Source: a plasmid. From it: DNA of 64,000 nucleotides. A program made the translations under genes and the position numbers. The notes beneath the pieces were generated by a model. The model did not search any database. It was not told where the DNA came from and saw only the letters and a list, made by a program, of their open reading frames with translations. Below are positions 30,417 through 34,755 of this stretch, piece by piece. Positions within the stretch are counted from its first letter, which is position 1; each line of letters begins with the position of its first letter. The stretch lies in sequence record NZ_LR134454.1; one strand, written 5' to 3'.

Positions 30417-30608
30417 ATGAGGCAACGTGAGGTGCCGCGGATAGCGTGGATGATGATGCTGTTCAGCGGACTGCTGGGGGCTGCGACGATGCTCCTCGTG
30501 GACTGGGCGCTGTGGCCGAGCTTTCGGACCGTCCTTGCCGTCTGCATGATCGCGGGCTACGTGATCGTCGCGGCGGTGGGTGCGGTGGGCCTCGTGAGGT
30601 CCCGGTGA
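30417..30608 (+). CDS. Small membrane protein (63 aa, 2 TM)
   Basis: MRQREVPRIAWMMMLFSGLLGAATMLLVDWALWPSFRTVLAVCMIAGYVIVAAVGAVGLVRSR. Stop overlaps the next start (ATGA). Confidence 0.4.
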   Translation: MRQREVPRIAWMMMLFSGLLGAATMLLVDWALWPSFRTVLAVCMIAGYVIVAAVGAVGLVRSR

Positions 30609-31243
30609 TGAGCCGCTCCCCTGTGGTGCGGACGGTGCCGGTCGCGGTGCTCAAGGCGTTCGCCGGGGTGCTGTTTCTGCTGTGGCTCGCGCTGTTCGCG
30701 GCGTTCGTTCTGCTCGATTGGCCGTTCGACGGCCCGCCGAGTCAGCGGATCGCGCACGGCTTGTTGCTCGCAATCGGCCTGACCCTGGCGACGGTGGCGG
30801 GCCAGCTGTGGCGGACCGCGATCGGGATGGAGCCCGTGACGAGTGTCGGCGACGCCCGCTACATGCTGGGCGGCATCGCGCTCCTCATCCCGGCGATGGC
30901 GCTTCTGTGGATGGACTACGGCGCGTGGGCGTCGTGGCGCATCGCAGCAGTCGTCGTGCTCTTTGCGGCGATGTTCGTGCTGGTCGTCCTCAACTTCCGC
31001 GACCGGCGGCGGCACAAGGGCGAGATCGCGGCGCCGGTCGCGGCGATGACGGTGCGAACCGCCCGCGGCGACCGGGAGGTGCGCATCGCGCAGCCGGAGG
31101 GCTTGCCCGACCGGTGGATCACGCACTGGTCGATCGACGGCGCCCCACAGGGCACGATCCACCGCGTCTCGTACGGACCCGACCCGATGCGTTCGCTCAC
31201 AGCTGCACTCGCCGACGCGGAGGCCGCGGTCGCCGTAATCTGA
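30608..31243 (+). CDS. Membrane protein (211 aa, about 4 TM plus a C-terminal soluble tail)
   Basis: Hydrophobic segments VAVLKAFAGVLFLLWLALFAAFVLL, LLLAIGLTLATVAG, MLGGIALLIPAMALLW and IAAVVVLFAAMFVLVVL. The next gene starts 5 nt later. Confidence 0.5.
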   Translation: MSRSPVVRTVPVAVLKAFAGVLFLLWLALFAAFVLLDWPFDGPPSQRIAHGLLLAIGLTLATVAGQLWRTAIGMEPVTSVGDARYMLGGIALLIPAMALLWMDYGAWASWRIAAVVVLFAAMFVLVVLNFRDRRRHKGEIAAPVAAMTVRTARGDREVRIAQPEGLPDRWITHWSIDGAPQGTIHRVSYGPDPMRSLTAALADAEAAVAVI

Positions 31244-31247
31244 AACG

Positions 31248-32927
31248 GTGGCTGAAACTTCAGGGCGGCGCCCTGCGATTCTGACCGTCGACGACGATCC
31301 GAGCGTGTCCCGCGCGGTGGCGCGGGATCTGCGGCGCAAGTACGGCGACGAGTACCGCATCGTCCGCGCGGAGAGCGGCGAACAGGCGCTGGAGGCGCTC
31401 AAGGAGCTCAAGCTCCGCGGCGACCTGGTGGCCGCGATCCTCGCCGATTACCGCATGCCGCAGATGACGGGCCTCGAATTCCTCGAGGCCGCGATGGACG
31501 TCTACCCGGGCGCCCGGCGGCTGCTGCTCACCGCGTACGCGGACACGGGCGCCGCGATCGAGGCGATCAACGTGGTCGACCTCGACCACTACCTCCTCAA
31601 GCCCTGGGACCCGCCGGAGGAGAAGCTCTACCCCGTCATCGACGCGCAGCTGGAGGCCTGGCTCTGCAGCGACCACCGGCCCGTGCCGGAGACGAAGGTC
31701 GTCGGGCACCGCTGGTCGGCCCGCTCGTCGGAGGTTCGGGAGTTCCTGGCCCGCAACCAGATCCCGTACCGCTGGTACACCGCCGAGTCGCCCGAGGGGC
31801 AGCGCCTCCTCGCCGCCGCGGGCAGCGACGGCCAGCAGCTCCCGCTCGTCGCCGCGGCCGACGGGACCGCGCTGTGCGCACCGTCGGACAGCGAACTGGC
31901 GGCCCACGTGGGCCTGAACACCACCCCGTCGGAGGAGTTCTACGACCTGGTCGTCGTCGGCGCGGGCCCGGCCGGGCTCGGCGCCGCCGTGTACGGCGCG
32001 TCCGAGGGGCTGCGGACGGTGCTCGTCGAGCGGTCCGCGACCGGCGGGCAGGCGGGGCAGAGCTCGCGCATCGAGAACTACCTGGGCTTCCCCGACGGGG
32101 TCTCGGGCACCCAGCTCACCGACCGGGCGCGGCGGCAGGCGACCAAGTTCGGCGCCGAGATGATCACCGCCGCCGACGTCGTCGAGCTCGAGGTGACGGG
32201 CTCCGGCCGGCGGGTGCGGTTCTCCGACGGCACCGTCGTGGGGGCGCACACCGTCATCCTCGCGACGGGCGTCGCGTACCGGCAGCTGGACGCGCCGGGC
32301 ATGGCGCGGCTCACGGGCGCCGGGATCTTCTACGGCTCGGCGATGACCGAGGCGCCGGCCTGCGCCGGCCAGGACGTCTACATCGTCGGCGGCGCCAACT
32401 CCGCGGGCCAGGCCGCGGCGTACCTGTCGAAGGGCGCGCGCTCGGTGACCCTGCTGGTGCGGGGGCCGTCGCTCGAGGCGTCGATGTCGTATTACCTCAT
32501 CCAGCAGCTGAACGCGATCGAGAACGTGCACGTGCGGCCGCACACCCAGGTGGTCGAGGCGCACGGCGACGACCACCTCACACAGCTCACCCTGCGGGAC
32601 ACCGAGTCGGGCGCGACGGAGCAGGTCCCGGCGGACTTCCTGTTCGTCTTCATCGGCGCCGAACCGCGCACGGACTGGCTCGACGGCGTCGTCGCGCGGG
32701 ACGGGCGGGGCTTCCTGCTGACGGGCCCGGATCTCGCGCTCGACGGTGCCGCGCCCCGGGGATGGGAATTGGACCGGCCGCCGTTCCACCTGGAGTCGAG
32801 CGTCCCCGGCATCTTCGTCGCCGGCGACGTCCGGTCCGAATCGGCGAAGCGCGTCGCCTCCGCGGTGGGCGAGGGCGCGATGGCCGTCATGTTCGTCCAC
32901 CGCTATCTGGAAGGAGTCGACTCGTGA
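31248..32927 (+). CDS. Fusion protein: N-terminal response-regulator receiver (REC) domain plus thioredoxin-reductase-like FAD/NAD(P) oxidoreductase domain
   Basis: REC: ILTVDDDPSVSRAV...ILADYRMPQMTGLEF...LLTAYAD, with phospho-acceptor Asp in ADYRMP. TrxR fold: DLVVVGAGPAGLGAAVYG, ATGGQAGQ, VYIVGGANSAGQAA and GIFVAGDV. The expected CxxC redox motif is absent (GSAMTEAPACAG in its place). GTG start. Confidence 0.8.
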   Translation: MAETSGRRPAILTVDDDPSVSRAVARDLRRKYGDEYRIVRAESGEQALEALKELKLRGDLVAAILADYRMPQMTGLEFLEAAMDVYPGARRLLLTAYADTGAAIEAINVVDLDHYLLKPWDPPEEKLYPVIDAQLEAWLCSDHRPVPETKVVGHRWSARSSEVREFLARNQIPYRWYTAESPEGQRLLAAAGSDGQQLPLVAAADGTALCAPSDSELAAHVGLNTTPSEEFYDLVVVGAGPAGLGAAVYGASEGLRTVLVERSATGGQAGQSSRIENYLGFPDGVSGTQLTDRARRQATKFGAEMITAADVVELEVTGSGRRVRFSDGTVVGAHTVILATGVAYRQLDAPGMARLTGAGIFYGSAMTEAPACAGQDVYIVGGANSAGQAAAYLSKGARSVTLLVRGPSLEASMSYYLIQQLNAIENVHVRPHTQVVEAHGDDHLTQLTLRDTESGATEQVPADFLFVFIGAEPRTDWLDGVVARDGRGFLLTGPDLALDGAAPRGWELDRPPFHLESSVPGIFVAGDVRSESAKRVASAVGEGAMAVMFVHRYLEGVDS

Positions 32928-34408
32928 GCACTCATGACCCGTGCTTCGTCGACGAACTGCGCACCCTGTTTCTGTTCGAGAAGCTCAGCGACGAGCAACT
33001 GGAGTGGCTGTGCCGACGCGGCCACGTGGAGACCTTCCCGGCCGGCCCCGTCTACTCCACCGGCGATCCGGCGCAGTGGCTGTTCGTGCTGCTCAGGGGC
33101 ACGATCGCGCTGTCGCAGAAGGTGGGCGACGCGGAGGTCGAGACCACCCGCTCCGATCAGCGCGGCGCCTACTCCGGCGCGTGGTCGGCGTTCCTCGGCA
33201 AGGGCGGGCCGGCGCAGAAGCAGTACAACTCGTCCATGCGCGCGGTGACCGAGGCGCAGTTCTTCATGCTGCCCGCCGAGGACTTCAACGAGGCGATGCA
33301 CGAGTGGTTCCCGATGGCGGTGCACCTGCTGGAGGGCGTCTTCTACGGCGGGCAGCGCACCCGGCAGATGGTCGAGCAACGCGAGCGGCTGCTGGCGCTG
33401 GGCTCGCTCTCCGCCGGCCTCACCCACGAGCTGAACAACCCCGCCGGCGCGGCCACCCGCGCGGCCACGGAGCTGCGCACCCGTGTGGGCGGCATGCGGC
33501 ACAAGCTGGCCGGCATCGCCAGCGGCAAGCTCGACCGGACGCGCCTCGTCGACCTGGTGAAGTTCCAGGAGGAGGCCGTCGAGGCGGTGGCGGACGCCCC
33601 CGACCTCGGTCCGCTCGAGGCCTCCGATCGCGAGGACGAGCTGATGGACTGGCTCGACGACCACGACATCGGCGACGGCCACGTGCTGGCCCCCGTGTTC
33701 GTGGCCGCGGGCCTGCAGACCGACTTCCTCGACCGCGTCGCGGGCTCGCTCGACGACGGGCCGGTGCTCTCCGGCGCGCTGCGCTGGCTGTACTACACCG
33801 TCGAGACCGAGCTGCTCATGAACGAGATCACCGACTCCACGAGCCGGATCTCCACCCTGGTGCAGGCGGCCAAGCAGTACTCGCAGATGGACCGCGCGCC
33901 CTTCCAGGTGCTCGACGTCCGCGAACTGCTCGACAGCACCGTCGTCATGCTCAGCCGCAAGATCGGCGACGGCGGCGTCACCGTGGTCCGCGACTACGAC
34001 CCCGACCTGCCCGACATCCAGGGGTACGGCGCCGAGCTGAACCAGGTGTGGACCAACCTCATCGACAACGCGGTGCAGGCCATGGACGGCCGCGGCACCC
34101 TCACCCTGCGGGCGCACCGCAAGGAGGATGCGGTGGTCGTCGAGGTCGCCGACACCGGCTCCGGCATCCCCGCCGACGTGCTGCCCCGCATCTTCGAGCC
34201 CTTCTTCACCACCAAGGGCGTCGGCGAGGGAACCGGACTGGGCCTGGACATCTCGTGGCGCATCGTGGTGAACAAACACCAGGGCGACCTGGCGGTGCGC
34301 TCCGAGCCGGGGAACACCGTGTTCACCGTGGAACTGCCCATCGACGGGCCGCAGCGCGAAGCAGTGATCGACGATCCCGGCGAGCCGGGAGAAGGACTGG
34401 AGCCATGA
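32924..34408 (+). CDS. Histidine kinase with N-terminal cyclic-nucleotide-binding (CAP-effector) domain
   Basis: cNMP-binding-like [14 protein letters not shown]...[24 protein letters not shown]. HisKA H-box [11 protein letters not shown]. HATPase_c N-, G1- and G2-boxes ([24 protein letters not shown]). GTG start overlaps the upstream stop (GTGA). Confidence 0.8.
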
Positions 34409-34755
34409 GCGAACCGACCGACCCGATCGATCCGACGGTGCCGCCCAGCGGCGCCGGGTGCGTGGAGTGCGACGCCGCCGGCGGCTGGTGGGTGCACCTG
34501 CGCCGCTGCGCGAAGTGCGGCCACATCGGCTGCTGCGACTCCTCGCCGTCGCAGCACGCGAGCGCCCACGCCCGCGCGAGCGGCCATCCCATCGTGCAGA
34601 GCTTCGAGCCCGGCGAGGCCTGGTTCTGGGACTACGTCTCCGAGGACTACTACGACGGTCCGCTGCTCGCCGACCCGCAGAACCGGCCCGTCGACCAGGC
34701 CGTGCCCGGCCCCGCGGGACGCGTGCCCGCCGACTGGCGGAACCACGTGCACTGA
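34405..34755 (+). CDS. UBP-type zinc-finger (zf-UBP) domain protein, 116 aa
   Basis: [44 protein letters not shown] matches the zf-UBP Cys/His pattern. ATGA overlap with the kinase stop. Confidence 0.7.

Follow-up and report, generated by a model that had tools for sequence, protein, structure and literature searches.

The stretch that we analysed (64,000 nucleotides of record NZ_LR134454.1, hereafter the window) holds, between positions 30417 and 34755 of its + strand, a chain of five open reading frames (ORFs), g1 to g5, whose last three members encode a receiver-flavoenzyme fusion (g3), a histidine kinase (g4) and a stand-alone UBP-type zinc finger (zf-UBP) protein (g5). We found that g3, g4 and g5 are the conserved unit, a self-contained signalling cassette of Actinomycetota, and that this cassette is a genuine two-component system. 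Its kind is known, but its enzymatic output is uncharacterised and its conserved partner was not expected. Our favoured reading, to which we give a probability of roughly 0.6, is that of a phosphorelay-gated NAD(P)H flavoprotein cassette in which the zf-UBP protein would be the partner of the flavoprotein. Few two-component systems act through an enzymatic output that does not bind DNA, and this one is very widespread in Actinomycetota (at least 599 stretches, many Streptomyces species among them) and conserved at a housekeeping level. An earlier note on the same DNA, the original prediction, had proposed a five-gene module gated by cyclic nucleotides and acting in nitrosative stress; these elements, the most exotic-looking part of it, do not hold.

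The window is high-GC actinobacterial DNA of Tsukamurella tyrosinosolvens, a protein of which is 100% identical to the g5 product; g3 shares 96-98% identity with orthologues from other Tsukamurella. The five-ORF chain is real, as it could be read directly from the sequence: g1 (30417-30608, 63 aa), g2 (from 30605 or 30608 to 31243, 211 aa), g3 (31248-32927, 559 aa), g4 (32924-34408, 494 aa) and g5 (34405-34755, 116 aa) all lie on the + strand and either overlap or are separated by 4 nt. The overlaps GTGA (g3/g4) and ATGA (g4/g5) are those first proposed, but g1 and g2 are joined by GTGA or TGATG instead of ATGA, and the gap between g2 and g3 measures 4 and not 5 nt. Such tight chaining of the five ORFs fits a single transcript. 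Third-position GC content reaches 0.86-0.95 across all five, compared with 0.69 in the preceding spacer (30172-30416). A GTG at 34824 with an AGGAGG site in front of it is the start of mscR; the close downstream start had been noticed before, and its distance from the end of g5 is 68 nt rather than 69 bp. The T. tyrosinosolvens records already call all five products as genes, under the names 'hypothetical protein' (g1 and g2), 'FAD-dependent oxidoreductase' (g3), 'ATP-binding protein/histidine kinase' (g4) and 'UBP-type zinc finger domain-containing protein' (g5). The sources given for the g2, g3 and g4 products (VEH93637.1, VEH93639.1) include '(plasmid) [Tsukamurella tyrosinosolvens]', a label that looks doubtful, as the longest contigs with these sequences measure ~4.7-4.9 Mb.

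The evidence for a three-gene unit comes from a scan of species-representative genomes with a g3 alignment, which yielded the 599 or more confirmed stretches, and from the analysis by tblastn of the best 80 loci. These 80 span more than 12 genera, including Tsukamurella, Streptomyces, Jatrophihabitans, Frankia, Rhodococcus, Williamsia, Kutzneria, Prauserella, Pseudonocardia, Cellulosimicrobium, Catenulispora and Actinocrinis, and also hold metagenome-assembled genomes (MAGs) of Streptosporangiaceae and Micromonosporaceae. A g4 orthologue lies downstream of g3 on the same strand in every one of the 80 loci and is directly adjacent in 79, commonly with overlapping start and stop codons. Of the 78 loci long enough to show the next gene, 66 have a g5 orthologue directly behind the kinase gene. 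The idea that the three genes would recur together in other genomes was thus borne out. Across orders, identity amounts to 69-78% for g3, 56-67% for the kinase and 57-83% for the zf-UBP protein; the orthologues in Streptomyces share 75-78% identity with g3 and belong to the same trio. In other assemblies, from Streptomyces, Jatrophihabitans, Cellulomonas and actinobacterial MAGs, the trio has entirely different flanks, and an all-against-all clustering of the ORFs of the 80 loci brought up no family beyond the trio that recurs across genera. The five-gene system is not supported, with g1 and g2 missing from T. hominis, from T. pseudospumae and from everything outside the genus.

Two loci departed from this layout in other ways. 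In a Pseudonocardia MAG (L085:9691-13531) an insert of ~3.9 kb splits g3 from the kinase gene, the sole split pair among the 80; two ORFs lie in the insert, one of 587 aa and one of 306 aa that has a P-loop-like motif. In Cellulomonas sp. JZ18 (L088:3863-5541) the g3 orthologue is called as a pair of overlapping ORFs (308 and 251 aa), for which a frameshift, decay to a pseudogene or an error of sequencing may be responsible.

We then examined the products by profile hidden Markov models, and Pfam upheld every domain call of the original prediction. The g3 product begins with a receiver (REC) domain (31248-31655, + strand, residues 1-136; Response_reg, 53.6 bits, residues 11-123) whose complete phospho-acceptor pocket, D15/D16/D17, D67, T95 and K118, is invariant in alignment A1. 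It ends with a FAD/NAD(P)H oxidoreductase module of thioredoxin reductase (TrxR) fold (31938-32927, +, residues 231-559; Pyr_redox_2, 111 bits), and this module of 330 residues can be aligned over its entire length with low-molecular-weight thioredoxin reductases. Between receiver and flavoenzyme lies a cysteine-free domain of ~75 residues, 'KVVGHRWSARSSEVREFLARNQVPYRW' (31689-31910, +, residues ~148-221), with a thioredoxin (Trx)-fold-like topology. Pfam returned nothing at E ≤ 1 for this domain in isolation or for its Mesorhizobium counterpart; its order in the AlphaFold2 (AF2) model, beta-alpha-beta-alpha-beta-beta-alpha, is a thioredoxin-fold order. At the place where a CxxC would be expected it reads 'GHRWSARS'; 'G.RWS.RS' is common in the family, and none of its members has CxxC there.

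The same loss marks the flavoenzyme module. In every PDB alignment the 'CA[AT]C' of TrxR pairs with S364-A-M-T367, of which S364, A365 and T367 are invariant (A1), and CxxC is absent from 84 of 84 family representatives, whose motif at this point is 'YGAxxxEA'. The cofactor motifs are invariant or nearly so, both those for FAD (G238/G240/G243, G266-G267-Q268 and G526-D527) and the 'GGANSAGQAA' for NAD(P)H. Modelling of g3 by AF2 with the 84 diverse representatives gave a mean predicted local distance difference test score (pLDDT) of 94.3 and a predicted template-modelling score (pTM) of 0.90, with the REC region above 90 in pLDDT; a run on a shallow alignment, of 18 sequences with 75% identity or more, reached a pLDDT of only 52 and was discarded. 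By Foldseek, the core of the model superposes on Lactococcus lactis TrxR in the flavin-reducing (FR) conformation (5mh4) with a TM score of 0.95 and a root-mean-square deviation of 1.5 Å. C372, considered as a single catalytic cysteine of the YpdA kind, was rejected for the family as a whole, being present, by our tally, in only about a quarter of the 84 representatives; close actinobacterial orthologues all have it, and so does the Mesorhizobium form.

On the model, g3 appears as an AhpF-like architecture with a receiver as first domain and both dithiol centres gone. The motifs let us say with good confidence that it should not be a thioredoxin or disulfide reductase of known type; because the family has no redox-active disulfide anywhere, we read the module as a probable NAD(P)H:acceptor flavoprotein instead. 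With its cofactor motifs preserved, it looks like an active enzyme. The original prediction of a receiver with a thioredoxin-reductase-fold output therefore stands as to the fusion and the fold; the thioredoxin-reductase chemistry, with no CxxC in the family, does not.

The kinase, g4, combines an N-terminal sensor of cyclic-nucleotide-binding (CNB) fold with a histidine kinase core, as had been proposed. The sensor domain (32924-33343, +, residues 1-140), of CNB or CRP/FNR fold, scores a marginal 28.0 bits with Pfam cNMP_binding, the cut-off being 27.5. A profile built from 13 g4 orthologues matched the whole of the DNR sensor domain (2z69, E 9e-13) and also the CNB domains of PKG and PKA, with overall E values of 1e-10 to 1e-13, as expected of a CNB beta-barrel fold. 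We examined the phosphate-binding cassette of this domain across 47 orthologues. The position of its Glu is taken by Ala86 (Ala in most orthologues, Ser in the rest), its Arg aligns with Tyr101, which is invariant, and an alternative Arg94 ('LGDR') is variable, with Gly in g4. Because the cassette Glu and Arg contacts are missing, canonical recognition of cyclic nucleotide monophosphates (cNMPs) is not expected from the sequence, and the gating of the kinase by a cyclic nucleotide, as originally proposed, is unsupported. Other sensor residues are invariant or nearly so, namely C7, C30, W128-F-P-M131, H134 and E137; C7, C30, the W128-M131 stretch and H134 may point to a different ligand or to sensing of a redox cue. 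Compared by BLASTP with the CNB domain of the fused Mesorhizobium enzyme described below, the g4 sensor gave an E value of 0.56, no specific relationship, and a direct domain transfer is not supported.

The kinase core (33344-34408, +) consists of the first helix of the dimerization and histidine phosphotransfer (DHp) hairpin, an insertion of ~95 residues, the second DHp helix and a HATPase_c domain (residues 371-473, 89.8 bits). H168 (nt 33425-33427) lies in the H-box 'THELNNP', which is conserved in the 47 orthologues. The insertion (residues ~205-295, window positions ~33536-33808) splits the alignments to ZraS and CckA, to which the core otherwise aligns, and bears an 18-residue motif conserved in the same 47 proteins; it could be a docking surface. 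Inspection by eye, with no predictor run, showed no transmembrane segment in g4. By the H-box with HATPase_c, the full REC pocket and the conserved adjacency, g3 and g4 are recognisable as a two-component pair, with a predicted phosphotransfer from kinase to regulator.

The third gene, g5 (34405-34755, +, 116 aa), encodes a stand-alone zf-UBP protein (54.6 bits; cut-off 22.7) with invariant Cys/His ligands, so the UBP-type zinc finger placed at the end of the operon was correctly recognised. Among known structures it matches PDB entry 2IDA (E 6e-27; molecule name 'Hypothetical protein'), which we take to be Rhodopseudomonas palustris RPA1320, and the ZnF-UBP domains of USP5 and HDAC6 at E ~1e-4. 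Invariant in alignment A3 are C19, C22, W29, H31, C35, C38, H40, C43, C44, D45, H51, H55, H61, W73, W75 and Y77; among these H31, H40, C43/C44 and D45 seem to be in excess of what two zinc sites would require. In USP5 the pocket that holds the ubiquitin tail is lined by W209, the carboxylate-binding R221, Y259 and Y261. Three of the counterparts in g5 are kept in type (W209 as W29, Y259 as W75 and Y261 as Y77), and R221 is replaced by H40.

To place the output module in a wider context, residues 145-559 of g3 were searched against a library of 1.84 billion cluster representatives at 50% identity, and 3352 relatives were found at E ≤ 1e-30. Among the N-terminal domains of 84 long representatives, Pfam recognised cNMP_binding in 21, Response_reg in 20, SnoaL in 2 and an EF-hand in 1, the rest being unrecognised at E ≤ 0.001; a wider list of 150 includes some relatives of merely ~400-430 aa that have no N-terminal extension. 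The module is thus a conserved effector wired to various inputs, and the Tsukamurella cassette is its two-component version. In Mesorhizobium (L091) and in a further locus (L092), a 2IDA-type zf-UBP gene lies directly downstream of a ~565-aa fusion of cNMP_binding with Pyr_redox_2; a third gene of the 2IDA type, in a Caldimonas MAG (L093), has no such fusion as a neighbour. Across residues 151-554 the CNB-fused Mesorhizobium form shares 44% identity with g3, and it is likewise without CxxC. The output module is repeatedly accompanied by a prokaryotic representative of the zf-UBP family, whose other known members belong to the ubiquitin system of eukaryotes. In the Mesorhizobium locus, arsenic genes were also seen near the pair (L091:899-2350), an anecdotal observation.

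We also scanned metagenomes from the zf-UBP side and analysed the 80 best loci, 21 of which have at least 2.5 kb on both sides. The order of the trio was found in 15 loci. In others the same partners are arranged differently: the zf-UBP gene is divergent from a REC-fused enzyme (L106:6-1556) or, with an 18-nt spacer, from a CNB-fused one (L164:312-2337), or it lies upstream of a likely CNB-fused enzyme whose N-terminal domain was judged by eye (L111:5001-6213). None of these three pairings has a kinase gene between the zf-UBP gene and that of the TrxR-fold enzyme. In L165 a divergent REC-type match lies ~450 nt from the zf-UBP gene, with another ORF called between them, and in L132 and L139 the zf-UBP gene is directly downstream of a TrxR-like module whose N-terminus lies beyond the end of the contig. 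The link between zf-UBP and flavoenzyme is therefore independent of gene order.

Other enzymes recur at the side of the zf-UBP gene. A 199-aa Oxidored_molyb gene follows it directly in about six loci (L096, L102, L104, L119, L121 and L140), and in four loci a gene for an FNR-like protein (FAD_binding_6/NAD_binding_1) comes next; L133 has the FNR-like gene alone. In L096 (4977-6670) the full trio precedes the Oxidored_molyb and FNR-like pair. An MsrB-MsrA gene stands directly upstream of zf-UBP in L116 (3990-5336), and in L157 (3078-5339) zf-UBP is directly downstream of ArsR-ACR3-ArsC(LMWPc). These recurring redox-enzyme neighbours suggest that the zf-UBP protein is a partner protein of reductase systems. 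By analogy, in the order zf-UBP, molybdenum enzyme, FNR-like reductase, it would take the slot of the small electron carrier in three-component molybdenum-enzyme systems.

From these observations we propose the following mechanism. The soluble kinase g4 would sense a cytoplasmic ligand or redox cue through its CRP/FNR-type (CNB-fold) domain and autophosphorylate at H168, from where the phosphoryl group would pass to D67 of the g3 receiver. The receiver would in turn control an AhpF-like output made up of the cysteine-free Trx-fold domain and the TrxR-fold FAD/NAD(P)H oxidoreductase. As to g5, it may be a dedicated partner, most likely the protein target or electron recipient of the flavoenzyme and less likely a regulatory subunit. 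We hold the phosphorelay part with high confidence, given the conserved residues on both proteins, although the phosphotransfer itself and the control of g3 enzyme activity by phosphorylation are steps that we infer. For a partnership of g3 and g5, which the gene neighbourhoods suggest, our confidence is moderate; a role of g5 as an electron carrier is speculative and held with low confidence. Finding the substrate of g3 would give a function to the family of 3352 relatives and to the bacterial zf-UBP proteins, and would show the gating of a flavoenzyme by phosphorylation.

Several points weigh against this reading. The zf-UBP gene is not adjacent in 12 of the 78 actinobacterial loci, where other, unrelated genes occupy its position. 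The association is weak when zf-UBP genes are taken as the starting point, a TrxR-like module being near in 5 of the 21 loci with at least 2.5 kb of flank on each side and in 20 of the 80 overall, and because of this the zf-UBP protein is not dedicated to this flavoenzyme. No redox connection is evident for some of its neighbours, namely pirin, a trypsin-PDZ protease and NYN/OST-HTH genes (beside it in four loci), and the MsrBA and ArsC neighbourhoods are single loci. In solved ZnF-UBP domains the zinc sites are structural and redox-inert, which disfavours a simple electron-carrier role. The TrxR-fold module could be a flavin-based sensor and not a catalyst, and the phosphotransfer, the flavin content, the substrate and the g3-g5 interaction are all deduced from sequence, model and neighbourhood.

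In one alternative the flavoprotein is a sensor or pseudo-enzyme and the zf-UBP protein is the output. The state of FAD and NAD(P)H, together with phosphorylation of the receiver, would set the binding or release of zf-UBP, which would grip the free peptide C-terminus of a target, as eukaryotic ZnF-UBP grips the tail of ubiquitin. Since neither a DNA-binding nor any other recognisable output is present in the cassette, some component has to relay the signal, and the three pocket aromatics kept in type (W29, W75, Y77) would suit such a grip. TrxR-fold enzymes rotate strongly between the flavin-oxidizing (FO) and FR domain arrangements; g3 was modelled in the FR arrangement, and the FO-FR rotation could serve as a switch. 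Moreover, g3 is unusually conserved for an enzyme without conserved neighbours, which suggests several constrained interaction surfaces. However, the carboxylate-binding Arg221 of USP5 is His40 in g5, the cassette proteins have no conserved C-terminal tail, whether Gly-Gly or otherwise, zf-UBP also adjoins unrelated enzymes, and all the cofactor-binding motifs of g3 are under strong purifying selection, as for a working enzyme. We consider this alternative unlikely. A similarly tentative status belongs to a broader idea that extends our own reading, according to which bacterial stand-alone zf-UBP proteins may form an unrecognised class of small redox-partner metalloproteins (electron carriers or thiol/metal switches) on which more than one reductase system acts. 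In that case the TrxR-fold family without CxxC would supply the NAD(P)H-dependent reductase for them, under the control of REC phosphorylation, cNMP, Ca2+ (through the EF-hand) or other inputs, and H31, H40, C43/C44 and D45, which lie in the stretch matching the ubiquitin-tail pocket of USP5, would be a reactive metal/thiol site.

The module envisaged in the original prediction, gated by cAMP or cGMP, with REC-TrxR as a disulfide or thiol reductase working alongside mscR-MBL against redox or nitrosative stress, has still less to recommend it, and we regard it as improbable. DNR is a haem-dependent NO sensor, and as the best full-domain match of the g4 sensor it would suit the nitrosative theme. 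The cNMP_binding score does lie just over its cut-off, the CNB-fused relatives in L091 and L164 retain the phosphate-binding-cassette Glu and Arg (by eye), and mscR follows g5 so closely in an arrangement kept in all four other Tsukamurella species examined. Nevertheless, the substitutions at Ala86 and Tyr101 and the variable alternative Arg speak against cNMP binding by g4, disulfide-reductase chemistry is unavailable with CxxC missing from both the flavoenzyme and the Trx-fold domain, and mscR-MBL adjoins the cassette in Tsukamurella only, which leaves both the mscR link and the nitrosative-stress module unsupported. In addition, a sigma-R-type promoter (GGAAT-N17-19-GTT) was found upstream of g3 in just 1 of the 80 loci, compared with 3 of 1600 control windows. 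Finally, we considered that zf-UBP might bind the Gly-Gly-Gln/Glu at the C-terminus of Pup and in this way tie the cassette to the Pup-proteasome system of actinobacteria. The family name, the binding of Gly-Gly tails by eukaryotic ZnF-UBP and the actinobacterial host are all that speaks for it. Proteobacteria are mostly without Pup, and a 2IDA-type zf-UBP gene stands beside a CNB-fused enzyme in Mesorhizobium and in L092; the pocket Arg is a His in g5, and the clustering of the 80 loci revealed no recurrent pup, dop, pafA or proteasome genes near the cassette. Pup binding was rejected on distribution and pocket residues as very improbable indeed. The phosphorelay-gated NAD(P)H flavoprotein with its zf-UBP partner remains the reading that we prefer.

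Comparison with known proteins sharpened the limits of each assignment. With TrxB, g3 shares the two-Rossmann fold, 26-31% identity and the FAD and NAD(P)H motifs, but it has 'SAMT' for 'CATC' and 'VRG' for 'HRR', carries the REC and Trx-fold domains as N-terminal additions, and scores 216.1 bits with TIGR01292, below the equivalog cut-off of 343.45. The best whole-chain Foldseek matches were AhpF structures (4o5q and 1hyu, E ~1e-30, 518-595 aligned columns), and in both proteins an N-terminal accessory Trx fold precedes a TrxR-type core. Unlike AhpF, g3 is without both dithiol centres, its first domain is a receiver and not a Trx fold, there is no ahpC nearby, and the TIGR03140 score is 159.7 bits against a cut-off of 502.9. 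TrxR folds without CxxC that reduce a small protein or a low-molecular-weight acceptor are known from the YumC-like, TrxR-type ferredoxin-NADP+ reductases and from the YpdA type. The matches of g3 to these (E 1e-11 to 1e-17 for the ferredoxin-NADP+ reductase entries, 67 bits for the YpdA model) are far weaker than those to true TrxRs; the YumC-like and YpdA-type enzymes are without a REC or Trx-fold extension, and the g3 family has no family-wide conserved Cys for a YpdA-like role. Another related protein is the 'Cyclic nucleotide-binding domain-containing thioredoxin-disulfide reductase' of Mesorhizobium and other loci, which shares the output module, the loss of CxxC and the downstream zf-UBP gene. 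It differs from g3 in that its input is fused directly, as in a one-component system, with the phosphate-binding-cassette Glu and Arg kept and no kinase. The g5 protein belongs to the same Pfam family as the ZnF-UBP of USP5 and HDAC6 and as 2IDA, with Cys/His zinc ligands in common and ~50% identity to the 2IDA chain. It differs from the eukaryotic domains in being a stand-alone bacterial protein with the pocket Arg changed to His, and the actinobacterial branch to which it belongs is distinguished from the 2IDA-type branch by the lack of an N-terminal Cys/His and of the Cys of 'WCY'. As judged from these features, g3 fails membership of the TrxRs and of AhpF, and g4 that of the canonical cNMP receptors.

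Proteins of the g3 type are nevertheless catalogued. A 2022 review lists the Streptomyces coelicolor pair SCO7297 (kinase) and SCO7298 (a 'TrxB'-class regulator) without name or function (PMC9739842), and a cyanobacterial census tabulates a 'TrxB' class of response regulators (PMC9953108). With its REC fused to a TrxB-like (COG0492-type) domain, g3 falls within the definition of this class, and SCO7297/SCO7298, which we matched by the catalogue description, have the same REC and TrxB-like architecture and the same regulator-then-kinase order as g3-g4. Neither catalogue (PMC9739842, PMC9953108) mentions that a zf-UBP gene comes third, that CxxC is missing or that the regulator is related to the CNB-fused enzymes. 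In the literature searched we found no functional study of a REC-TrxR regulator, of the CNB-fused enzyme or of a bacterial zf-UBP protein, and the statement that no system of this composition has been characterised stands, the S. coelicolor pair having only been catalogued. NCBI names proteins of the g3 type 'FAD-dependent oxidoreductase' or 'fused response regulator/thioredoxin-disulfide reductase'; 'Thioredoxin reductase (NADPH)' and 'thioredoxin-disulfide reductase' are probably the wrong names for them.

We next turned to the two genes at the head of the chain. The g1 ORF (30417-30608, +) has two Kyte-Doolittle hydrophobic stretches, a third-position GC content of 0.86 and no match to a Pfam family. 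Its exact-sequence cluster consists of T. tyrosinosolvens entries only, named 'hypothetical protein'; the copy in T. conjunctivitidis (L008) is 44% identical, and among the loci examined L009, L010 and L011 have no g1, nor does any other genus. The g2 ORF (30605-31243, +; third-position GC 0.91) encodes a membrane protein with several hydrophobic stretches and a soluble C-terminal part, and its sole Pfam match is DUF6968 at 24.2 bits, under the cut-off of 27. It is 61-65% identical in L008 and L010 (65% in T. conjunctivitidis), as opposed to 89-98% for the neighbouring genes (90-98% in T. conjunctivitidis). Both g1 and g2 are called as genes only in T. tyrosinosolvens records. A T. paurometabola MAG (L010:6570-7996) has two tandem g2 paralogues and no g1, and T. 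hominis and T. pseudospumae (L009:7538-8000 and L011:7430-8000) have neither, with spacers of 463 and 571 nt between g3 and the upstream gene for a GT4 glycosyltransferase. This GT4-g3 spacer is hypervariable within Tsukamurella, although g3 is 84-98% identical across the genus. Thus g1 and g2 look like real but accessory, lineage-specific genes: the two small membrane proteins said to head the operon exist as genes, but, varying as they do even within Tsukamurella, they are not part of the system. Because g2, where present, ends 4 nt before g3, co-transcription of g1 and g2 with g3 in T. tyrosinosolvens remains plausible.

The surroundings of the cassette in Tsukamurella comprise a methyltransferase gene and the GT4 gene upstream and, downstream, mscR (TIGR03451, 701 bits) followed by a gene for an MBL-fold protein. 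The mscR-MBL genes, a 234-aa ORF (missing in one of four loci) and the methyltransferase-GT4 pair are neighbours of the trio in the four Tsukamurella loci and nowhere else; matches to alcohol dehydrogenases near the cassette in Kutzneria, Frankia and MAG loci have merely 28-31% identity to mscR. Beyond the MBL gene lie a Condensation-domain protein (37248-38687, - strand), two large ORFs without a Pfam match (38864-40576 and 40573-41883, both -), which from their size and position we take to be Rv0226c- and Rv0227c-like, and an Acyl_transf_3 protein (43249-44475, +). Rv0225 and Rv0226c are neighbours in mycobacteria, and it was on this basis that an insertion into a cell-wall locus had been proposed. 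For the genus this is reasonable, but the insertion would not be limited to five genes: the distance from GT4 to the Rv0226c-like 570-aa gene is ~8.7 kb, a wider block that includes mscR, MBL, the 234-aa ORF and the condensation-domain gene. Farther upstream, just before the methyltransferase gene, a 700-aa ORF (26065-28167, +) consists mostly of ~13-aa repeats of the form 'P.DKL..VV..L', followed by an Ala/Glu/Pro-rich tail.

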